NCBI RefSeq assembly: GCF_022701215.1
Contig: NZ_CP089976.1
Location: 660,001-692,000 of the forward strand
DNA from: Moraxella nasovis
GTDB lineage: Bacteria; Pseudomonadota; Gammaproteobacteria; Pseudomonadales; Moraxellaceae
DNA length: 32,000 nucleotides
Direction: 5' to 3'
Position numbers and translations under genes: made by a program. The stretch's first letter is position 1, and the number at the start of each line of letters is the position of its first letter. Shown one piece after another: positions 13,886 to 25,555 of the stretch. The notes under the pieces were generated by a model. It was not told the DNA's origin. It saw only the letters and a program-made list of their open reading frames with translations, and did no database searches.

Positions 13886-14170
13886 CTAAACCGTGAGAAG
13901 ATTTGTAAAGTTGGCAGCTTCACCCGCTTTTACCAGATTGTTAATGCTTTGTACTTGGTCAACTAGGCTGTTTGACACACCCATCGTTAAACCTGTGGTT
14001 TTTTGGTGTTGGTGATTGTAGGTTTCTGTGGTGGCATTCATATTTTGGATGCTCGCTGATTTGGCGTTAATCACCACCGTGCCATGGGTTAGGTCATGCA
14101 CGTTGTCATTGCTTTGGTTACCTGCTGACACCACACTGCCTTTGATGAAGCCTGATTTTGTTTGGTGGTG
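13886..14170 (-). pseudogene. filamentous-hemagglutinin/CdiA repeat-region fragment (both ends missing)
   Basis: Open frame ...KSGFIKGSVVSAGNQSNDNVHDLTHGTVVINAKSASIQNMNATTETYNHQHQKTTGLTMGVSNSLVDQVQSINNLVKAGE. This is FHA-2-type repeat sequence with no credible start and only about 95 aa. Confidence 0.6.
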
Positions 14171-14737: not shown

Positions 14738-15477
14738 TAAAACAAAAGGGGCTGTACTAGATTAACTTTAAATTCCACACCATTTCCTAAGCACTTTAAG
14801 CTGATGAGAGGCGATCCATAGTTAAATCTAAACTTCCGTCTTTGATAAAAAGATGAATGTTTTTCTTGTCAATACCGTTGTATTTGCGTAGCACACGTTT
14901 GACTTGCGACCAGAAATTTTCAATGCCGTTAATGTGATTGTAAGCATTTTCTTGGTTAACAAACTCTTTTGAATGATTTATCCGAAAGTGTTTGAAGTCT
15001 GATACATCAAGAGCATTGTAACTTCGGTAGCTGTCTGTGTAAACTATGCTGTCAGGCTCGACTTTGCTTGTAATGATAGGCATGAGTGTGTCTGTTTTGG
15101 TGTCTTTAACAACAACAGTATAAACTTTACCATTTGCCTTAAAAGATCAAAGACAGCGGTTTTGCCACCTGCTCTGTGTCCACGTTTACCTTTAGAACAC
15201 CACCGAAATAACTTTCATCAAGCTCAACTTCTCCATCAAAGAGTGTTTGAGCTTCTAGGCTAAGATGGTATTGTATCACAGTTAAGATTTTATGATAAAA
15301 TAACGCTGCTTAAATTATGCTTAAATGCCTAACAAATTACTGGCTGTTCTAGCAGTAACTTGGGCGATGAAAAATTCAAGTAGTTTTAACTGAACTTTTT
15401 TAGTTAGTTTACAACGAGTTATCTTCATTTTTGTCGTATACCACATTGTGTAATCTACTACAGCCCCTATTGTTTTT
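14738..15477 (-). mobile_element. IS1016-like element (IS1595 family) with a decayed transposase gene
   Basis: Terminal inverted repeats AAAACAAAAGGGGCTGTACTAGATTA (left) versus AAAACAATAGGGGCTGTAGTAGATTA (reverse complement of the right end). The C-terminal transposase ORF 14796..15083 reads EPDSIVYTDSYRSYNALDVSDFKHFRINHS...HINGIENFWSQVKR. The N-terminal part (MKITRCKLTKKVQLKLLEFFIAQVTARTA...) is broken by stops and frameshifts. Ends are uncertain by about 10 bp. Confidence 0.8.
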
Positions 15478-15509: not shown

Positions 15510-16025
15510 TCATTTGGTAAATTTTCTGCTCTCTGCACTACCATCGTTCCCAATCTTTTGATACATACTCAAAATTTTAATCAATTCATCTTTGTATTCT
15601 TCGTTGTATGGAATAAAATATTTTTTATTGTTGCTTGATATGGATATTGCATCATAAGCATAATGCGAAATTATTTTGCTTAATAGTGTCATTTTTTTAA
15701 CTTCAATTACTTCAATATTGTTTAAATATTCATATTGAAATTTTGAAAATTTCAATGCCATTTTGCCATCAAGAAAAAATATTCCCACAACAGTTCTTTT
15801 TAAGAAAAATTTATATAAAATATTCTGCAAAATAAATAGAAATCCAACAACACAAAGAAATAAAGAAAAATATGTGTGAGAATTTGGCATGAGTTTAAAA
15901 AAAATATAAGATAAGCAAAGAAAAGCGAAAATTGTTGGCACCATTTCAAAATTCTTTTCATCTAAATATTTTTGATTAATGTATTTATTATATCTATCAT
16001 AATCTAAATTTTTAATTATATTCAT
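15510..16025 (-). CDS. two-TM membrane protein, putative (orphan) immunity protein
   Basis: 171 aa. Two hydrophobic helices (VPTIFAFLCLSYIFF, FSLFLCVVGFLFILQNIL) followed by a soluble tail. GAGGGAGG RBS. Same layout as the 16191..16691 product, including KYFIPYNEEYKDELIKILS versus IFFIPHSKADKNFISHLES. Confidence 0.55.
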   Translation of the reverse strand: MNIIKNLDYDRYNKYINQKYLDEKNFEMVPTIFAFLCLSYIFFKLMPNSHTYFSLFLCVVGFLFILQNILYKFFLKRTVVGIFFLDGKMALKFSKFQYEYLNNIEVIEVKKMTLLSKIISHYAYDAISISSNNKKYFIPYNEEYKDELIKILSMYQKIGNDGSAESRKFTK

Positions 16026-16190: not shown

Positions 16191-16691
16191 TTATTTCGCA
16201 ACACTTTCCAAATGACTGATAAAATTCTTATCGGCTTTACTGTGTGGTATAAAAAAAATGCTATGTCCATTAGTTAATTTAATAAAGCTGACGGATAAAA
16301 TTGGATCTTTTTTGGTGATAATCCAATTCTTTTTTATAGAGTAATCCCAATCCAAGATGATGGGATTATCAATCATGATTTTTTGATTTAAAAAACCTTT
16401 TCCTTTTATCGTACTATCGACAATACTGATGGTTTTAAAAGACTTTCTGCCATAGTTTATAAGTAGCGCAATCTCTTCGATTGATACCACTGCCAACGAT
16501 ATTATTGGTGGCAGATAGTATGTTGAAATTTTTACTCCGAAAATTTGAACAGCCCATGCATTAGAAGTAAACACATAATAAGAAAAAAATAACATAAAAG
16601 CCAAACATAAGAATAATATAATGAAAGCTCTATTAACCCTATTTATAAAATTACTATCTATGACAAAATAATAAATATTACTTCGATTCAT
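16191..16691 (-). CDS. two-TM membrane protein, putative immunity protein for the VEDN orphan toxin
   Basis: 166 aa. The start lies 2 nt after the stop of the upstream toxin ORF. Two TM helices are followed by a soluble C-terminal domain. Very AT-rich. Confidence 0.65.
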   Translation of the reverse strand: MNRSNIYYFVIDSNFINRVNRAFIILFLCLAFMLFFSYYVFTSNAWAVQIFGVKISTYYLPPIISLAVVSIEEIALLINYGRKSFKTISIVDSTIKGKGFLNQKIMIDNPIILDWDYSIKKNWIITKKDPILSVSFIKLTNGHSIFFIPHSKADKNFISHLESVAK

Positions 16692-16693
16692 TT

Positions 16694-17687
16694 TTATTGT
16701 CCTTTTTTTTGTTTATCTATAGAAATGGTGTATTTTTTATATAGCTCATCCGAAATTTTTCCAAATGACGCATTAGGAGCCACAGTAATTGAGGTCTGAC
16801 ACAAATCACCACAATTGTAGTTACCAAGATACTTTCCTGCACCATAAGTAAACCCATTCACCACATGAGATGGCTTAACACTAAAATCATCGCCTTTGTT
16901 AGAAATAATTTGATTACTATATGCCGCTGCAACACCAACAGTAATTGCTTGTGTTGTATTTTTGGTCATATTTAACGCTCCCCCTCCAAGACCCCCTGTA
17001 ACAGTATTGGATATATAACCCAAAGCATTTCGTTCATTTTTAGGAGTGGTTGCATGGTAGCTTACAGCAGAAGTTGCAGAGCCTACTTTGACTGTTGTTG
17101 GAGTAACTGAAGCTGCTGCGAAGACATAAGGGGTATATCCAGCAGTAGTTGCAGCCAATCTATTGAACTTCATGATAGGCTTCATTGTTTCCGCTACTGA
17201 TTTCTGACTGCTACTCAAAAACGGAGTTATATGCTCAGGCATTACATAAAATAAAAATGGCAAATCCTTACTTTTAGCATTTGAATTTTTCTGTCTGGCA
17301 TCACTACAACCTTCTAAATTTGGGTTTCTTTGACAATGCTCAGCTTTAACAATTTGGTGATTGATGTCTGTTGTAGATATATTAAAGTTACTTGGTGTCC
17401 AACTAAATTGATTATCCTCCACCGCCACCTTAGCCACTTCACTTGCATTTACTGCTTCTGCCACATCACCTGTGGTGGTGTAGGTAGTAGCAACTGTACC
17501 TAGTCTTATGATGCTTGTGATGGTGTCTTTTTGTTCTTGAGTGAGCTTACTAGGTTGGTTTTTGTCATATAAGATTTTGGATAAGGCAGGGGCGACTTTT
17601 TCACTGGTTGCTCCACTGAATGCTCCTAGTGCTACATTATTACCTGTCGCATAGCTTGTGGTAGCTCCTAGTAGGGCATGGGATAAT
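16694..17687 (-). CDS. orphan CdiA-CT module (pretoxin homology, VEDN motif, unique 238-aa C-terminal domain)
   Basis: The frame opens at 17687 with LSHALLGATTSYATGNNV...LTQEQKDTITSI...GDVAEAVNASEVAKVAVEDN (VEDN at 17411-17422). The first ATG is at 17464, which is the track ORF 16694..17464. The pretoxin part is homologous to the 18236..19264 product. The tail is unrelated to it. Confidence 0.75.
17643..17686. repeat. 44-bp repeat copy (pretoxin homology block) with a sharp homology breakpoint at 17686/17687
   Basis: CCTGTCGCATAGCTTGTGG(T/C)AGCTCCTAGTAGGGCATGGGATAA is shared with 19056-19099 (1 mismatch). The flanks diverge immediately on the upstream (gene 5') side. Confidence 0.85.
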
Positions 17688-17732: not shown

Positions 17733-18239
17733 TTATTCTAATGCTTTGGCGTAAGATGCCAAATCTTGCAAAGCTCGTGGATTTTTACCGCCCCACCAGT
17801 GTTTACGGCATTCACTTCTAGGACTCCAAAATACATGTATGCCAAAAAATTCTCGTTCATCTATCTTAAATTCAACATACATACCATCTTTCAAGCAAAA
17901 TATTTTTTTCTCATCCACTTCAAGCACAACAAATTTTTTGTCTGCAATGATTTTAATCATGACATTTTCAGATTTATCATAGGCAAAATATCTTGAAAAG
18001 TAATAATGGTCGGCTTTTCTAAAATAATCTTCATCTAAATAGGATCTGTCAAAATCTGTCAATTCATCAACAACTTGAGCCATTTTCTCTTTATTTGGCA
18101 AATCATAGTATTTCCATTGATACAAATAAGGATTCGCCTTTTCAAAACTTTTGTCGTACAATTTATAAAAATACAGCCCAAATAAAGCGGTGCTTATTAT
18201 ACCACCTACGATAAGTATGATTTTATTGAGTAGATTCAT
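17733..18239 (-). CDS. N-terminally membrane-anchored protein, putative immunity protein for the VENN orphan toxin
   Basis: Track ORF 17733..18350. The real start is most likely MNLLNKIILIVGGIISTALFGLYFY at 18239, whose ATG overlaps the toxin TGA stop (ATGA). One TM helix plus a soluble domain. Confidence 0.7.
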   Translation of the reverse strand: MNLLNKIILIVGGIISTALFGLYFYKLYDKSFEKANPYLYQWKYYDLPNKEKMAQVVDELTDFDRSYLDEDYFRKADHYYFSRYFAYDKSENVMIKIIADKKFVVLEVDEKKIFCLKDGMYVEFKIDEREFFGIHVFWSPRSECRKHWWGGKNPRALQDLASYAKALE

Positions 18240-19264
18240 TTTAAAACACCTAAGTCTTTTAAGATCTTCTTCTCGGTATCTGTCAGCTGTCGCATCACAG
18301 TGCCACCAACACCAACTTGGGTAGTACCTACACCTGTTGCCACAGTCCAATACCCTTCCTTCCCTTCACCTCTAGATACACTCAAACAAGCATAATGACA
18401 ACCTTGCAAACCAAGAGATCTACCTCCAATCGCCTGATCCACTTTTGCCTCGCTACTACCCGCACCAATAACTGTTCCAACCTGAACAGAAATCCCCAAA
18501 GAAACAGGTTTTTTGAAGCCTTTAGCTTTAATATCGTCTTGGATTCTATTTACATAATCTTTTGGATTTATGGTAATTCCATATCCAGCTTGGTATTCAT
18601 CTGATTTAGGCATTCCACCAATCCAAACATTGCCATTTCTATTGTTTACAACAATGGTATATGAAAACACACCAGCACTTACCGAATATATTGTTAAATC
18701 ATGATATTTATCAGCGTATTCCCCAAAGATGTCACCAAGGGTTCTTACCTCGCAAGCATTAACATCCCCATTCCTGCACGCACGAGCATTTAAGGCTCTA
18801 CCTTTTTGCATATAGTTTGCACCTCCATTATTCTCCACCGCCACTTTCCCAACTTCACTTGCATTCACCGCTTCTGCCACATCGCCAGTCGTCGCACCAA
18901 CTCCAAGTCCTGCAAGGCTTGCAATACTACTTACCGTCTGTTTTTGTTCTGTGGTTAGCTTACTTGTGTCAGAAGTGCCAAATAGATATTGAGATAAAGG
19001 TTTGGCAGTAGCCTCAGCACCCATCGCAGACAACGCTCCAGTCGTTGGGTCGTTGCCTGTCGCATAGCTTGTGGCAGCTCCTAGTAGGGCATGGGATAAA
19101 ATGTGTGGGGCAGTACCTTCGGTGTTGTTTTGTTTAAAGTGTTGTCCGATTTGATAGGAAAGTTCTGGGCTTAATACTCTGGATATGTCGCCTGTGATGC
19201 CGTTGCCGTTAGGTGCATATAGGGCGGATGTGATGCCATAAAATAGGCGTAGGTTGTTCATCAT
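18236..19264 (-). CDS. orphan CdiA-CT module (about 145-aa pretoxin region, VENN motif, unique 196-aa C-terminal domain)
   Basis: 342 aa. ...ELSYQIGQHFKQNNTEGTAPHILSHALLGAATSYATGN...LTTEQKQTVSSIASLAGLGVGATTGDVAEAVNASEVGKVAVENN (VENN at 18827-18838), then an unrelated tail GGANYMQKGRALNARACRNGD... Confidence 0.8.
   Translation of the reverse strand: MMNNLRLFYGITSALYAPNGNGITGDISRVLSPELSYQIGQHFKQNNTEGTAPHILSHALLGAATSYATGNDPTTGALSAMGAEATAKPLSQYLFGTSDTSKLTTEQKQTVSSIASLAGLGVGATTGDVAEAVNASEVGKVAVENNGGANYMQKGRALNARACRNGDVNACEVRTLGDIFGEYADKYHDLTIYSVSAGVFSYTIVVNNRNGNVWIGGMPKSDEYQAGYGITINPKDYVNRIQDDIKAKGFKKPVSLGISVQVGTVIGAGSSEAKVDQAIGGRSLGLQGCHYACLSVSRGEGKEGYWTVATGVGTTQVGVGGTVMRQLTDTEKKILKDLGVLK
19056..19099. 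repeat. 44-bp repeat copy (partner of 17643-17686)
   Basis: Same 44-bp block. Here the homology to cdiA-type sequence continues upstream. Confidence 0.85.
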
Positions 19265-19270
19265 AAAAAT

Positions 19271-19717
19271 TTAGCTTCTTTGATTCTTGGTTAAATAGAA
19301 CAGTAAAGCCATAAAAAGCAGAGTTGATGGTATTGATACCAAAAAATAATATAACATTTCATCCATAATATCATGAGAATTTGTATTGTAGAAATGAAAA
19401 CTGGGAAACTTTAAAATCATAAAACCATAAATTATTATCAATAAAAATGATATCAAATTTTTTAATGATTTATTCCTTACCCACCACTGAATAAAACATA
19501 CAAGCAACAAGACTGGGGAAAAAAATATAGTGGCAATAAAATCAAGGAAAAACGGTGCCATTGCTATTATCTTAATTGATTCAATAAAGCTAGGAGCGAT
19601 GCCATCTCCTCCAATCTCTATAGATATTACCAGTATCAAAAAAATAAAGTAAGATACAATATAAAATGATAAAAAAACCAAAAATAGTGTCTTAAAAAAT
19701 AAAGCCTCCGTTCTCAT
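19271..19717 (-). CDS. polytopic membrane protein, putative immunity protein for the truncated cdiA toxin
   Basis: 148 aa, almost entirely hydrophobic helices (4-5 predicted by eye). AAGGG RBS. Very AT-rich. It is the first sizeable ORF downstream of the 19956 toxin stop. Confidence 0.55.
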   Translation of the reverse strand: MRTEALFFKTLFLVFLSFYIVSYFIFLILVISIEIGGDGIAPSFIESIKIIAMAPFFLDFIATIFFSPVLLLVCFIQWWVRNKSLKNLISFLLIIIYGFMILKFPSFHFYNTNSHDIMDEMLYYFLVSIPSTLLFMALLFYLTKNQRS

Positions 19718-19955: not shown

Positions 19956-21842
19956 CTATTTCTTCTCCTTTTCAAAGCTATCTAATGCTTTATCAACTAT
20001 ATTTTGGGTCGCATTGTTAGCAATACTTCCTTTCACCTCTAGAATAGGTGGCAACTCTCCAAAAATAACTTTACTTGGCATTGAGCCAATCTGTCTAATT
20101 GGCACATTTCGTCTACTTTCTAATGAAGTTATATCTCCCTTTCCACTACCAAAGTCAATATAGGGATCTACGTCATAATCCTTATGTCCGATTTTTTCAG
20201 TTCTGGGAGCGTAATAATTGTAGCTACCGGCATTTGTTGGATTATTGACTATTCTGCTATAATCATCAGGACTTAATATTCCATCTTTAGTATCGATCAC
20301 TATTTCTAACCGTCCATTATTATGAACAAATTTCTTATAACGATAATGTCCATTAGGTAATTTATTTGGAATACCATTTGCATCAAAATTATGAAAAATA
20401 TTTTCTTCATCAAGCATTGGTTTCCAATTATTCATGTTGCCATTCGTATTATCTTGTAAAAATAAACTATTTGCCTCAGCATTCCATCGTTGTCTTTGAG
20501 TCACATGCAAATAATAGAATTGTTGACAACCTTTGCCAGCACGACAATTATCATACGCTGCATTAAAATCCTTATCTCTTTTTTCACCAAGATTGTCAAA
20601 CTCTTTTATTTGGTAATCAAGTCTATCAAGTTTTGACTTACAATCAGAGTCAATCAAACAACTAAGTCTAGTTGAATACCTGCTAAGAAGTCTTTGTTTT
20701 TCCTGTTGCAACTTAGCTAATTTGGCATTCTCAATATGATTCAAATAATTATTCTCCGTCTGATTAACGCTATTGGCCACACTTGCGGTGTTATCGCCAA
20801 TAGCACCACCAATACCTGCTGATAGTGTAAGTAAGACTGTATCTCGAGTTTGTTTATCATAACCTTGTTGTTCTAGGTATTTATCAACTTTTGGAATAAC
20901 AATCGCTGTTCCACCGCCTGCAACTGTCCCTTCAATTGAACCTGTGGCTAAAGCACTAGATAATGTATGAAGTGCGACACGGTAGATACCGCCCTCTGCC
21001 CATTTTTCGGCTTCATCAATATTACCTTTGTTGATTAGCTCAAGCTATTTATTACTTGCATAATCCCCAATCGCTTTTGGCATTTCTTTACCATATTCTT
21101 GGGTGATGGCTATCTGAGCATCAATCTCTTGATTGACCCTATCCTTATCAAAGTTATTGACCAGTGTTTCATTGAGTGTACTTACATTATTGGTGGTTAT
21201 CTCAAACTTACCTGCCATACCTGTTACTGCACCATAGGTGGTGGAAGTTTGGTTGTCGCCGTCTTTGCCATAACCTATGCCACTGATTTTAGGTTTTTGA
21301 CCTGCTTTGGTAGAAATACCGACATTAATGTCATCGGCTTTATAATTGCTGTGGTTTTGAATATCGCTGACTTGTAAACCACCATTAAACTGGGTTTGAT
21401 TATCTTTTTGGGTAGCTGTGGTAAAGTAAGCTCCTTTGAATGTGCTTTTACCATGGACAATAACATCAGACTTTTGGTAGGCAAATCCTGTTTGTTCGGT
21501 TACTGCTTTATAATCGGCATTTGCTTTGGTGCGACCACCATTGACTGCAATACTTGAGCCTGCACCTTGTTTGGCTAAATCGATATCCACATTAAAACCA
21601 GCACTGCTTTGTCTGCCCTCATAGGTTTTGGTATCTTGACGGCTGGTGGCATGAATACCTCCGCTGATATGCCCTGTCATGTGCTTGCCTTTTTCTATGG
21701 CACCATCTAGGATATAATCACCACCCACATTTTGATAAGTCGTTCCTGCTACTGTGATGTGGCTGTTAGTATTAGTGATGGTGGTGGTTCTTCCATGTCC
21801 TTTTGCCATAGATTTCAAAATGATGGAAATGGTAATTTTCAT
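19956..21842 (-). pseudogene. cdiA: 5'-truncated cdiA/FHA-family exoprotein 3' end with its own CT toxin, interrupted by an in-frame TAG
   Basis: ORFs 21045..21842 and 19956..20780 are in the same frame. The read-through is ...NNFDKDRVNQEIDAQIAITQEYGKEMPKAIGDYASNK*LELINKGNIDEAEKWAEGGIYRVALHTLSSALATGS...ASVANSVNQTENNYLN (TAG at 21045-21047, TENN at 20748-20759). The upstream part is FHA-2-like (TTTITNTNSHITVAGTTYQNVGGDYILDG...). FHA-like sequence stops near 21800-21812. Confidence 0.8.
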
Positions 21843-21935: not shown

Positions 21936-22397
21936 ATGAAGTTAATAGGAAATAAAGATATTTATCTTGAAGTAGATATTGTTACATATTGTAATAATAT
22001 GGCTCATCTTGTTCTGATAATAGGTAATACAAGAATTGGAACATTGGATTCTCCAACTTATATTCCTAGCTTTATCGCTTCATTAGAAAGTTTATTATTG
22101 GAAAATGTTTATTTTTATGAGAATATGAATATTGATGTATTTACCAAAATGGCATTGGGTGGTGAATTAGAAAATAAAAATGCGTTTACTTTAGAAGATA
22201 CATTCGATGATTTTATGAAGCGATGTATTAGAAGTAAAGACAATTTATATTTTTATTTTAAACTATACACAGATCATTTTTTTGAATATAAAAATATCGA
22301 TGTTAATGTGCCTATTATTAAAATAATTAGTGTAAAAAACTTTGATTTATTTTTAAGTGATATCAAATATTTTTTTAATAATATTAATATGTATTAA
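21936..22397 (+). CDS. hypothetical protein, putative immunity protein
   Basis: 153 aa, soluble and very AT-rich. It starts 6 nt after the toxin-tail stop. No recognisable motif. Confidence 0.5.
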   Translation: MKLIGNKDIYLEVDIVTYCNNMAHLVLIIGNTRIGTLDSPTYIPSFIASLESLLLENVYFYENMNIDVFTKMALGGELENKNAFTLEDTFDDFMKRCIRSKDNLYFYFKLYTDHFFEYKNIDVNVPIIKIISVKNFDLFLSDIKYFFNNINMY

Positions 22398-22810
22398 TCA
22401 ACACTACCTATAACTTTGAAGTACAAGACCTCCACACCTACCATATCGGTAAGTATGGAGTGTGGGTGCATAATGATTGTTGGAATAATCTCCCAAATGG
22501 TGCAGTAGCAACAGGAAAAACTACGATTGATGGACGAAAACTTTATACTTTTAAAGACGATAAAGACAAACAAGTTACAGTTTATCAGGGTTCTGATGGT
22601 CGTTAGTACGATCCCAAACTTCATTCCCCAACTCAGCCTACTGCTACTGGGGTTAAGGCTGTTGATTACATACCATCATTACATGAGTACAACCAAAAAG
22701 TTAATGGTCCTGGTTTGTCAAGAGATAAGAAAATTTCATATATCAAAGACACATTATCTAAGATCGCTCAACGAAATGGATGGATTAAGGATAATACTCT
22801 ATCCAAATAA
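22388..22810 (+). pseudogene. PT-HINT C-terminal remnant plus toxin domain, with an in-frame TAG
   Basis: Plus-strand frame with codons starting at 22388, 22391 and so on: YVLINTTYNFEVQDLHTYHIGKYGVWVHNDCWNNLPNG...VTVYQGSDGR*YDPKLHSPTQPTATG...IAQRNGWIKDNTLSK*. YNFEVxDxHTYxxGxxGVWVHN is the classic Hint/PT-HINT C-terminal block. TAG at 22604-22606. There is no start codon, and the 5' end overlaps the preceding stop. Confidence 0.7.
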
Positions 22811-22827
22811 ATGACTTTATACTAACA

Positions 22828-23250
22828 GTGGCCTGGAAAAGCCTTCCCTATCAGAAATATATACCCGGAATGGGGAATTATGATATTAAAGAAGCTCATG
22901 GAAATGGAACCACTTATGCGGATGGGACTAGAAAGGCTTATGATGGATATTTATTTCATGGGAAATATGTAACTTTAAGAGAAGGTGGAAATATTCTAGC
23001 AGGGATGAATGCTGCTACTTTAGGTATACCTTATGAGGATTTTCAAAAGGCTAGTGGTGCATTGCATGTTGGTGGTATAGCTGGATTAATGAATCATTTA
23101 ACTACAGGTAAAGTTTATGGTAATTACCCCAGATATGGCGAAATAGATTACCAATACCTAAGAAGTAGGTATGGATATAATTTAGGAATAAAAAGGATAG
23201 AATGCAATATTGATAATGCAAAACTTGGTTCTGATTGCCAAACAAAATAA
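22828..23250 (+). CDS. stand-alone toxin domain, toxin-44 (Ntox44)-like
   Basis: 140 aa from a GTG. LREGGNILAGMNAATLGIPYEDFQKASGALH...YGEIDYQYLRSRYGYNLG resembles my recollection of the GN..AG..AA..G / GE..YQ...GY..G pattern of polymorphic toxin type 44. No delivery or pretoxin region. The family assignment needs an HMM search. Confidence 0.45.
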   Translation: MAWKSLPYQKYIPGMGNYDIKEAHGNGTTYADGTRKAYDGYLFHGKYVTLREGGNILAGMNAATLGIPYEDFQKASGALHVGGIAGLMNHLTTGKVYGNYPRYGEIDYQYLRSRYGYNLGIKRIECNIDNAKLGSDCQTK

Positions 23251-23260
23251 GGAGCTATTA

Positions 23261-23671
23261 ATGAGTTTTTTTAGATATATAATAATATTTTATTTTAAAA
23301 TAATTATTTTATTGTTGTCTTTAATTATTTTATTATATCTATTTATAGCAAAAGAAAAAGCATATTATTATTGTGATGATATTTGTATAACTATAATACA
23401 ACATAATGCAGGTAGAGATACTTTTTTTAGAGTGTATGATGGTATTTTGTTGAGTAGGTACGCTTATCTTATTTATTCTTATGCTGAATATCCAAATGAA
23501 ACATACATATATATAAAAAACAAGAAAATTGATGGAAAGATAATTGTAGAAAACTTTACCATGCCAGTTAAATATAAAGGAAAACTAAATAACGCAAACT
23601 TTTATTTATCATCTTATGAGAGTAGCGAAATAAAATTCACAGAGTTAAAATATTTATATTTATTCTTCTAA
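23261..23671 (+). CDS. membrane-anchored protein, putative immunity protein
   Basis: The ATG at 23261 lies 6 nt after an AAGGAG that overlaps the toxin stop. MSFFRYIIIFYFKIIILLLSLIILLYLFIA is a TM anchor, followed by a soluble domain. Extremely AT-rich. Confidence 0.6.
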   Translation: MSFFRYIIIFYFKIIILLLSLIILLYLFIAKEKAYYYCDDICITIIQHNAGRDTFFRVYDGILLSRYAYLIYSYAEYPNETYIYIKNKKIDGKIIVENFTMPVKYKGKLNNANFYLSSYESSEIKFTELKYLYLFF

Positions 23672-23701
23672 TACCTCATTCTCAACTTGTATGATAGATA
23701 A

Positions 23702-24261
23702 GCCTCAAAGCATGATGGTAGGGGTATTTTTTTATCAAACAGTCTTGCTCAAACGTCGTTGCCAACTCAATGGCACACTGCCTTTTCTTCTCTTGTGTCT
23801 AAGGCTGGTGTCACACTCATCGCCAACATCGCCCATAAGCTTAGTGCAGGATTAACAGGCTGTCTGTCTGCCAAAGTCAAAGATAGTTCTTGCAAAGCTG
23901 GGGCAGTTGGCTCTATCATAGGAGAGATGGTAGGCGATTGGATGACCAATGGACATAAGATCACCCTGCCTAATGGCGGTGGTTAATAATGCTGTCAATA
24001 AAGAATTGGTTGGGATGGCAGAAGATTTTGAAGGCTTGCTAAACAGCTCTATACGTAAAGTTGGATTACTTCGTGGTGATGACGCACATGCCTACCTTTT
24101 ATCCTTGAATGAAAAAAATTTGATGTTGGAGCCAACGCAAACGGGCTACTTCAATAATAAAAAATCTAGATATATTTACACAGAACAGGGTGGATGGATA
24201 GATATGGTTCATTTCTTGTTTTACGCTAGTGAAGCATATAACTATAAAATGCAAATGATAA
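23702..24261 (+). pseudogene. orphan toxin module, 5' part (pretoxin fragment, frameshift, toxin domain) cut by IS982
   Basis: The frame opening at 23702 reads ...NSLAQTSLPTQWHTAFSSLVSKAGVTLIANIAHKLSAGLTGCLSAKVKDSSCKAGAVGSIIGEMVGDWM, the Cys-x-Cys / GxxVGExVG pretoxin pattern of CdiA/MafB-type proteins. It shifts frame near 23975 into VVNNAVNKELVGMAEDF...GGWIDMVHFLFYASEAYNYKMQMI. Confidence 0.6.
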
Positions 24262-25241
24262 ACCCCACTCTCAACTTAAAATCATCTCAAATTGTAGTGG
24301 CGGATTACCAAGTTGTTTATTAATCTGCACACAAAAAGTATGAGCAAGTAGCTTTCTAACAAAACGACAAGACAAGTGGTATATGTCTTTTGCTTTTACC
24401 TTTTGTATGTTAAACCTATCTGACAGTTGAGAGATGGTAGTCTCTATGGTCTTTTTTTTCTTTTTAAGGTAAGACAAAAAGCCCTTATCTTTATCATCTG
24501 TCATATTATCCCTAAGGGGAGTTTGCAAATCAATGGCATATCTTTTTAACCCATCTTGTCAATCTTTGGATAAACAACCCTTATCACCAAACACCTGACC
24601 TTGTAGGTTATCTGTTAGCTCAAATACCACTTGTCTGTCATCTACGTTTGCCCCTGTTAGCGTGTAGCTTATCACTTGTCCTTGTGTGTTGGTCAGTAGA
24701 TGTGCCTTAAAGCCAAAGTAATGCTCATCTTGACTGGCACAGTAGCCAAAAGCAACCATGCCATTAAAGTTCTTGTGTCGTCTTGCTCTACCATAGCGAC
24801 ATACAGATATAGGAAAGCTATCTATCAAATCAGGCGATGAGTTTTGACTGGCTTTATTTTGTATGGCAAGTGCATTCATCATCTTGTTTGTTACCCAATA
24901 CAAATTGGCACAGTGTTTGGCAAAGTTGGGGTATGAGCCAATTTTGGGAAAGTGGTGTGTGTAGTGGTTTTTAAAGTAAGACCACATTTGCCTGTCTGTA
25001 TCTACACCTAAACACTCTGCCACAATCTGCATAGTAATCACTTCACTATCAGACAAGGCAGGGGGAAAGCCACGAGTTCTGATAGGAGTTGTTACAATAC
25101 TTTTATATAAAACATCTACCATAAGGCACACGGTAATGATAAAATCATCATAAGACATAACTTGCTCCGTTTTTGTGCTAAAAATAGGATTGGGTTATGT
25201 CTTTTTTATTTTAAGGTTGTTGGGAAAGTTGAGATTGGGGT
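24262..25241 (-). mobile_element. IS982-family insertion sequence (980 bp)
   Basis: Inverted repeats ACCCCACTCTCAACTT (24262-24277) and ACCCCAATCTCAACTT (reverse complement of 25226-25241). They are flanked by a 3-bp direct repeat TAA (24259-24261 and 25242-25244). Confidence 0.85.
24271..25158 (-). pseudogene. IS982-family transposase with an in-frame TGA
   Basis: ORFs 24559..25158 and 24271..24528 share one frame: ...QVFGDKGCLSKD*QDGLKRYAIDLQTPLRDNMTDDKDKG...IETTISQL... TGA at 24559-24561. The family is recognised from the GDKGY-like, DLxTPxR and IETxxSQL motifs. Confidence 0.8.
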
Positions 25242-25244
25242 TAA

Positions 25245-25555
25245 AACAAGATTTTAGCTACTGCCCATCTTGGCTTAATCCCAAACAAACCCACAAAACC
25301 AAACATCATCACAGTATCTATTTAGGAATGGATGCTGGCTTTGTGAAAAACAAAAATCACGAACAAGATAAACTACTACTTGGTCATAGCCTAGTTGGCG
25401 CTGCTATAGGCATTAAAGGACAAATCACCCCAACTACCAATCATCCTTACGCCAGTTTCAACTATGGCCTGTTCACCGCCAAAGCCATTCATGAGCCAAA
25501 TCATTTCTCAGATAAAGATTGGGTGAGTGGATTTAGTGTTGGTATGGGGTTTTAG
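25245..25555 (+). pseudogene. orphan toxin module, 3' part downstream of the IS982 insertion
   Basis: Deleting the IS and one TAA copy joins ...YNYKMQMI to KQDFSYCPSWLNPKQTH...SGFSVGMGF* in frame. Track ORF 25175..25555 starts artificially inside the IS. Confidence 0.55.

Follow-up and report, generated by a model that had tools for sequence, protein, structure and literature searches.

A probable orphan CdiA toxin-immunity module with a tail of a new, unannotated family in a decayed locus of Moraxella nasovis

Toxins deployed in contact-dependent growth inhibition (CDI) that depolarise their targets are known in two types, the alpha-helical type 10, represented by EC93, and Ntox25 (Halvorsen et al. 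2024, PMC11630599). In type 10 the ionophore domain is a predicted five-helix bundle, the glycine zipper G-x3-G-x3-G is the sole element common to all members of the family, and the CdiI immunity protein is a two-helix hairpin of 72-100 amino acids with both ends cytoplasmic; integral-membrane CdiI proteins were described for ionophores in a survey of E. coli CdiA C-terminal toxin regions (CdiA-CT) (PMC11630599). Orphan cdiA-CT/cdiI modules are described as a reservoir that can be reactivated by recombination (Poole et al. 2011, PMC3150448). The element analysed in this work lies in a 32-kb stretch of the Moraxella nasovis chromosome (contig NZ_CP089976.1, positions 660,001 to 692,000, hereafter the window) and consists of the open reading frame (ORF) 16694..17464 on the minus strand and the gene directly downstream of it, 16191..16691. 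Together these are very probably a genuine orphan CDI toxin-immunity module whose toxin belongs to a new, unannotated family.

ORF 16694..17464 encodes 256 amino acids from a GTG start, and its product is identical to LU293_03390 of the M. nasovis chromosome. The VEDN codons occupy 17411-17422 (minus strand), the first tail codon is CAA (Q) at 17408..17410 and the TAA stop is at 16694..16696, leaving a tail of 238 amino acids after VEDN (16697-17410, minus strand); the coordinates, the sequence, the tail length and the 2-nucleotide gap to the next gene, as given in the original prediction, were correct on this codon check. Upstream of the annotated GTG the frame stays open as far as 17686, across remnant pretoxin sequence (LSHALLGATTSYATGNN...VAVEDN) with stop codons before it; counted from the start of this remnant through the last tail codon, it runs to 330 codons and is uninterrupted. 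The module and the gene that follows it are composed of:

17411..17686, minus strand: pretoxin (PT-VENN) remnant ending in VEDN, recognised from its translation, Pfam and DNA repeats, with in-frame stops upstream.
17264..17410, minus strand: first 49 tail residues (QFSWTPSN...NAKSKD), variable and poorly conserved, a candidate linker or entry segment.
16697..17263, minus strand: conserved toxin core of 189 amino acids, from LPFLFYVMPEH to the C-terminus, with invariant columns from L50.
16191..16691, minus strand: candidate cognate immunity gene, subfamily A, 166 amino acids (LU293_03385), identified by its hairpin of two transmembrane (TM) segments and its linkage among homologues.
15510..16025, minus strand: orphan immunity gene, subfamily B, 171 amino acids (LU293_03380), with two TM segments, identified by the immunity profile and tblastn.

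On the extended frame PT-VENN scored 20.2 bits (E 6.6e-4), 0.1 bit short of the Pfam cutoff of 20.3; the same profile scored 32-33 bits in two homologues (P0002 and M. oculi L014, see below). The motif before the tail reads VEDN, not VENN. Two direct DNA repeats connect the remnant with the neighbouring module, 17411-17476 matching 18827-18892 at 85% identity and 17640-17686 matching 19053-19099 at 96% identity. Because the pretoxin remnant is preceded by stops and its DNA is repeated in the neighbouring module, the tail was assigned to an orphan module and not to a full-length CdiA. Identification of the pair as such a module rests on the PT-VENN remnant, the co-varying ORF downstream and the position in an array that follows filamentous haemagglutinin (FHA)-repeat sequence.

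The immunity ORF begins 2 nucleotides past the toxin stop (junction ACAATAAAAATGAATC). Its 166-amino-acid product has two hydrophobic segments, at approximately residues 23-45 and 58-80 (Kyte-Doolittle hydropathy in a 19-residue window, KD19, 2.53 and 1.99, respectively); the helices of the hairpin are placed at approximately residues 23-45 and 51-80, separated by a predicted periplasmic loop of a few residues up to ~12 and followed by ~85-95 more residues that are predicted to be cytoplasmic. Positive charges lie at the N-terminus (R3, R18, R21) and after the second TM segment (RKSFK...KGKG), and both termini of the hairpin would thus be cytoplasmic by the positive-inside rule. The C-terminal residues are conserved like the hairpin (identity 0.58 vs 0.54-0.57). 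The original prediction overlooked this additional part of the immunity protein, as well as the placement of the pair as an orphan module in a decayed locus.

Every toxin homologue has an immunity homologue directly downstream, of subfamily A at L001-L006, L010-L012 and on M. bovis plasmids and of subfamily B at L007 and M. oculi L014, toxin subfamily B being partnered with immunity subfamily B. Toxin and immunity sequences diverge in parallel (toxin/immunity identities of 65/55, 58/50 and 45/38%), the immunity homologues being 50-55% identical, falling to 38% in the most divergent, degraded copy beside the 45% toxin. The immunity profile search returned 14 proteins of 159-177 amino acids, divided into subfamilies A (the 166-amino-acid type) and B, and all of those with a source name are from Moraxella (M. 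nasovis, M. bovis plasmids, M. nasibovis, M. oculi). On 25 M. bovis pMBO-type plasmids the immunity gene is intact and the toxin is cut to its C-terminal 77 residues (core 111-187), as on pMBO-1 (L013, NC_010893.1, 196-1033), where a 5'-truncated toxin remnant is followed by a subfamily-A immunity gene; on these plasmids the pair sits downstream of the large FHA-like genes. M. nasibovis carries a lone subfamily-B immunity gene beside an IS110 element, amid housekeeping genes. Taken together, the adjacency, the co-variation and the survival of the gene where the toxin has been lost are what a cognate immunity gene should show; on this comparative evidence the 166-amino-acid protein is the predicted specific immunity protein of the tail, in agreement with the original description of the downstream gene as encoding an integral membrane protein and as an immunity candidate. 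The same three features point to a toxin that circulates among these Moraxella.

Scanned against Pfam, all 12 immunity members had noise-level matches only (DUF6585 0.014, PH_BEACH 0.056), and the immunity profile had no match among PDB sequences at E<=10. The name 'YcxB-like' carried by one subfamily-B UniRef record was not reproduced. For the second immunity gene, 15510..16025 (P0033), the immunity profile gave E 3.9e-51, a value that is circular as the sequence was in the query alignment; independently of the profile, the N-terminus of its product aligned by tblastn with the gene downstream of P0006 (a subfamily-B toxin, see below) at 39% over 44 amino acids (E 1.3e-5). In M. oculi, and on a metagenome contig as well, subfamily-B relatives of this gene come after P0006-type toxins (P0038 in M. 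oculi), and a P0006-type toxin cognate to 15510..16025 is absent from the 32-kb window.

Homologues of the tail are few. A search of 5.8 billion clustered proteins returned four proteins including the query, and an exhaustive profile search with HMMER across 1.84 billion representative proteins returned 7 matches, all short orphan or fragmentary ORFs. A scan of 185,579 species genomes (one per species) returned no match to the toxin family, and a scan of Joint Genome Institute (JGI) metagenomes added three loci, all with frameshifts or stop codons. The intact members are P0002 (337 amino acids, 58% identity) and P0003 (385 amino acids, 65% identity), plus the two proteins of a distant subfamily B, P0006 (260 amino acids, ~36% identity) and a 405-amino-acid M. 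oculi protein. P0002, P0003 and the M. oculi protein are themselves orphan modules that start inside the pretoxin region, and the 10 kb upstream of P0003 hold only more orphan modules. The 58-65% homologues matched the tail at E 1e-80 to 1e-90 and, with the distant ~36% subfamily, they show that 16694..17464 is not a chance ORF. By these searches the toxin family is very small and previously unannotated, and its members with a named source are all from Moraxella. Directly upstream of the P0003 module (metagenome contigs L001/L016; ~6238-9992 in L016) are six tandem paralogous genes of 204-209 amino acids without a Pfam family, which look like an amplified immunity-gene array.

Conservation in the alignment begins at tail residue 50 (LPFLFYVMPEH) and continues to the C-terminus, residues 1-49 being variable and the last 10 residues before the core having a mean identity of 0.27. 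LPFLFYVMPEH is the most conserved motif of the toxin (identity 0.96) and may serve either as an active site or in receptor binding. The variable segment holds a Cys pair (HCQRNPNLEGC), which takes the form YCANQ.G.F..C in P0003, P0006 and the M. oculi protein, and the core holds charge-free stretches, TGGLGGG, NGFTYGAGKYLGN and CGDLC. The composition of the tail is T 10.1%, S 9.7%, A 9.2% and G 7.6%.

The absence of a recognised toxin family, noted by eye in the original prediction, was borne out by searches of Pfam with the tail and its relatives (five family members; nothing, even at E<=10), of NCBIfam and PADLOC with the tail (nothing at E<=1) and of PDB sequences with the toxin profile (nothing at E<=10). 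Among the Pfam profiles without a tail match at E<=10 were those of the colicin pore domain, Gly-zipper_Omp/YMGG/OmpA, Rick_17kDa_Anti, bacteriocins, hydrolases, lipases and colicin-M-like proteins. As a control, CT-EC93, an experimentally proven ionophore, is likewise without a Pfam family and reached only E 0.039 on Gly-zipper_Omp. For comparison with EC93, CT-EC93 and CdiI from pCP127 and a 12-sequence profile of close EC93 relatives (45-78% identity) were used. BLASTP of the tail against CT-EC93 gave no alignment better than E 0.75. As a positive control for Ntox25, the EC93 Ntox25 protein scored 294.6 bits (2.7e-88).

A reading in which this orphan module of a decayed CDI array encodes a tail that depolarises the cytoplasmic membrane, and is neutralised within the membrane by the immunity hairpin, is favoured tentatively. 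In its favour, the two strongly hydrophobic segments of the immunity protein agree with the hairpin topology reported for the CdiI of CDI ionophores (PMC11630599). Only 14% of the residues of the core are charged, and charged residues are missing altogether from three runs of 21-23 residues and from a fourth of 15. GxxxG is enriched relative to shuffled sequences in subfamily A (p 0.004-0.045), and the glycines of TGGLGGG and NGFTYGAGKYLGN (G-x3-G-x-G-x3-G) are invariant in both subfamilies. Hydrophobic moments averaged over the alignment fit a helical periodicity better than a beta one; core residues 25-45 form a strongly amphipathic helix, and the segments between helices are mildly apolar and of low moment. 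Short-spaced Cys pairs (HC-x8-C and C-x3-C in the M. nasovis tail, three pairs in subfamily B) would suit a protein that works outside the cytoplasm. A beta-barrel or beta-pore was considered for a tail rich in T, S, V and Y, but rejected on the helical hydrophobic-moment periodicity.

In the mechanism proposed, a full-length CdiA would gain the tail by recombination at the shared pretoxin sequence, and the tail would be released after VEDN into the target periplasm. The Cys-pair segment, LPFLFYVMPEH and the amphipathic helix may then engage an inner-membrane component, after which the low-charge, small-residue-rich core with its glycine-zipper-like motifs would enter the cytoplasmic membrane and collapse the ion gradients across it, unless blocked there by the immunity hairpin.

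Several results weigh against this mechanism. The most hydrophobic 19-residue window of the tail has a KD value of 0.93, compared with 1.76 in the EC93 ionophore domain, the summed Hessa apparent free energy is +6.4 compared with +3.5 in EC93, and no segment of the toxin resembles a classical TM helix. A relationship to either described depolarising type was not detected: hhalign gave a probability of 0.2% for the tail against the EC93 profile, a comparison of two shallow profiles in which only close EC93 relatives represent the ionophores, and for Ntox25 (PF15530) it gave 0.3%, with no Pfam match at E<=10 in the five family members. AlphaFold2 returned pLDDT (predicted local distance difference test) values of 31.0 for the full tail (4 sequences) and 37.8 for the core (5 sequences including P0006), and these low-confidence models were of mixed helix and strand, with no helical bundle. 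A Foldseek comparison of a predicted structure had been put forward in the original prediction as a way to place the tail; run against PDB on the better of the two low-confidence models, it returned nothing below E 3.9, as expected of a poor model. The rarity of the family, with alignments 4-5 sequences deep, accounts for the failure of AlphaFold and of profile methods. A full-length CdiA carrying the tail was not found in the 5.8-billion and 1.84-billion protein searches, the species-genome scan or the JGI metagenome scan, and several toxin copies are frameshifted. Finally, the ~85-95 conserved immunity residues after the hairpin could neutralise a cytosolic toxin, and LPFLFYVMPEH and other invariant polar positions (E, H, K, R, D) might just as well make up a catalytic site. 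Taken together, the suggestion of a possibly undescribed ionophoric family stands as regards an unannotated family; the tail is not detectably related to EC93 or Ntox25, and its ionophore function is an argument from analogy.

The last two of these points lead to the alternative that the tail is a cytosolic enzyme toxin of unrecognised fold, with its N-terminal part serving as a cytoplasm-entry domain, like that of most CdiA-CTs, and the membrane-tethered immunity protein neutralising it through the cytoplasmic C-terminal part. Both ends of the hairpin are cytoplasmic by the positive-inside rule and the residues that follow it are as conserved as the hairpin, the invariant PEH and the conserved E, R, D, K and Q could form an active site, and a toxin without a classical TM segment is compatible with a soluble protein. 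A Cys pair just after VENN, as found here, was reportedly described in cytoplasm-entry domains by Bartelli and colleagues in 2019. We nevertheless consider the cytosolic enzyme unlikely: the searches of Pfam, NCBIfam, PADLOC and PDB sequences gave it no enzyme family at the thresholds above, and its low charge, charge-free small-residue stretches and glycine-zipper-like motifs would be unusual in a soluble enzyme. A CxxxC pair moreover lies inside the toxin core itself, with a further pair in subfamily B, and integral-membrane CdiI proteins have been described for ionophores (PMC11630599), the partner of Ntox25 on pCP127 likewise reading as a hydrophobic membrane protein.

A second alternative concerns use and not function, and overlaps with the other readings: the M. 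nasovis copy may be a non-functional relic that is never made or delivered and whose intactness is incidental. It draws on the surroundings of the module, where the minus strand from ~14000 to ~21850 is an array of cdiA-CT modules with, from upstream to downstream and in addition to the features given above:

21045..21842, minus strand: FHA-repeat fragment (Fil_haemagg_2), by Pfam.
19956..20780, minus strand: 'TENN' tail without a family match, followed by a multi-TM ORF.
19271..19717, minus strand: multi-TM ORF of 148 amino acids, after a 238-nucleotide gap from the 'TENN' tail.
18236..19264, minus strand: VENN tail, Gly-rich, without a Pfam family.
17733-18239, minus strand: single-TM ORF of 168 amino acids, its ATG at 18239 overlapping the stop of the VENN tail as ATGA.
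14796..15446, minus strand: IS1595 (ISXO2-like) transposase fragments over several short ORFs, which bound the array downstream.

All three tails in the array have membrane-protein partners. The G+C content falls from ~44% to 24-40% over the array. Neither an intact cdiA nor an intact cdiB is present in the window: the largest ORF is no longer than 557 amino acids, which leaves no room for an intact cdiA, and the largest FHA piece is of 265 amino acids. A weak match to the C-terminal part of ShlB/FhaC at 25175..25555 (plus strand; 20.4 bits where the cutoff is 22.7, E 3.9e-4) is below threshold and adjoins a DDE_Tnp_1_3 transposase at 24559-25158 (minus strand); this may be a cdiB remnant broken by an insertion sequence (IS) element, of which the window has two. 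No start codon of its own was found for the module upstream of the pretoxin remnant, and in a promoter and terminator scan around the module promoter-like sites were no commoner than expected by chance. Lodged in a decayed locus that is riddled with IS elements and has neither cdiA nor cdiB intact, the module is probably not deployed by this strain and the cassette is probably silent; the immunity genes of this genome may still be protective against neighbours.

These features, together with the frameshifted or truncated state of related copies and the lack of a known full-length CdiA with the tail, favour a relic. Set against them are the uninterrupted 330-codon frame and the three to four divergent lineages that keep the frame intact at 36-65% identity, which argues for purifying selection on the family. 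Orphan modules are moreover described as a reservoir that recombination can reactivate (Poole et al. 2011, PMC3150448), and silence in this strain is uninformative about the activity of the protein once deployed. A relic was judged improbable.

Beyond the IS1595 fragments, 13886-14134 (minus strand) encodes 82 amino acids that resemble FHA-type repeats by eye, without a Pfam match, possibly a further piece of cdiA. At 21936-24323, past the FHA fragment and before the DDE_Tnp_1_3 element, the plus strand carries several ORFs of 124-153 amino acids without Pfam matches, among them 23210..23671, whose product looks membrane-embedded. Oriented opposite to the array, these ORFs might be more remnants of toxin-immunity modules.

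The least probable alternative, action of the tail in the periplasm or on an envelope precursor (lipid II, peptidoglycan or a phospholipid) with interception at the membrane surface, would fit the paired cysteines, which suggest an oxidising compartment, the membrane location of the immunity protein and the missing cytosolic-enzyme signature, but is very unlikely given that the very short predicted periplasmic loop would expose little to bind a periplasmic enzyme and that no hydrolase, lipase or colicin-M-like Pfam match was obtained at E<=10.

The family would bring to the CDI repertoire a new, unannotated toxin fold and an immunity architecture, likewise new, in which a hairpin is joined to a cytoplasmic domain. 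Unannotated CdiA-CT families are common; the tail family opens no long-standing question and is a new toxin family inside a known kind of system. The species concerned, several of them from cattle or sheep, form a natural experiment in which toxin and immunity gene, immunity gene only or neither is present, depending on the strain. M. bovis is the agent of pinkeye, and its pMBO-type plasmids carry the immunity gene. A broader proposal, possible and held with more reserve than depolarisation as such, is that the tail represents a third structural class of CDI depolarising toxin, neither type 10 nor Ntox25, with an immunity protein of hairpin and obligatory cytoplasmic domain, that circulates in ruminant-associated Moraxella, the lone immunity genes of M. 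bovis plasmids serving as defence.

Among known systems, the Ntox25 and Tse4-like beta-barrel toxins share with the M. nasovis pair a Gly-rich toxin delivered by CDI with a downstream partner that reads as a multi-TM membrane protein (L009:20150-20506, pCP127), and differ in that the hydrophobic periodicity of the M. nasovis tail is helical and not beta. Microcins such as microcin V and pore-forming colicins combine a low-charge, small-residue toxin, sometimes with a C-terminal disulfide, with a small inner-membrane immunity protein. The general logic of a low-charge toxin and a membrane immunity protein is common to these and the M. nasovis pair; there is no sequence relationship, delivery is by CdiA as opposed to a type I secretion system (T1SS) or Tol/Ton, and the 189-amino-acid core is far larger than a microcin. 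Microcins and colicins also figure in the discussion of PMC11630599. With the orphan modules of Poole et al. 2011 (PMC3150448), the locus shares a pretoxin fragment that lacks the cdiA 5' part and has tail and immunity gene behind it, a tandem arrangement after a cdiA remnant and pretoxin homology between modules; it differs in its degraded parent cdiA and cdiB and in a lone immunity gene (ORF171, 15510..16025) without a toxin.

The comparison with EC93, on which the original prediction was built, holds in part. The M. nasovis tail is less hydrophobic than that of EC93, it does not reproduce the exact G-x3-G-x3-G register of type 10, and its low-confidence AlphaFold2 models lack the five-helix bundle. 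The immunity protein, at 166 amino acids (159-177 across the family), is not of the 72-100-amino-acid type, its ~85-95 extra residues having no counterpart in EC93, and the named members of the tail family are all from Moraxella. In common with EC93, the toxin is a CdiA C-terminal tail behind a VENN-type motif, rich in G, A, T and S and poor in charges, with a glycine-zipper-like motif near its C-terminal third (GFTYGAGKYLGN in M. nasovis, VGNAIGTALGNKAG in EC93); neither toxin family is in Pfam, and in both systems the product of the immunity gene directly downstream is an inner-membrane hairpin of two helices whose ends are both predicted to be cytoplasmic.

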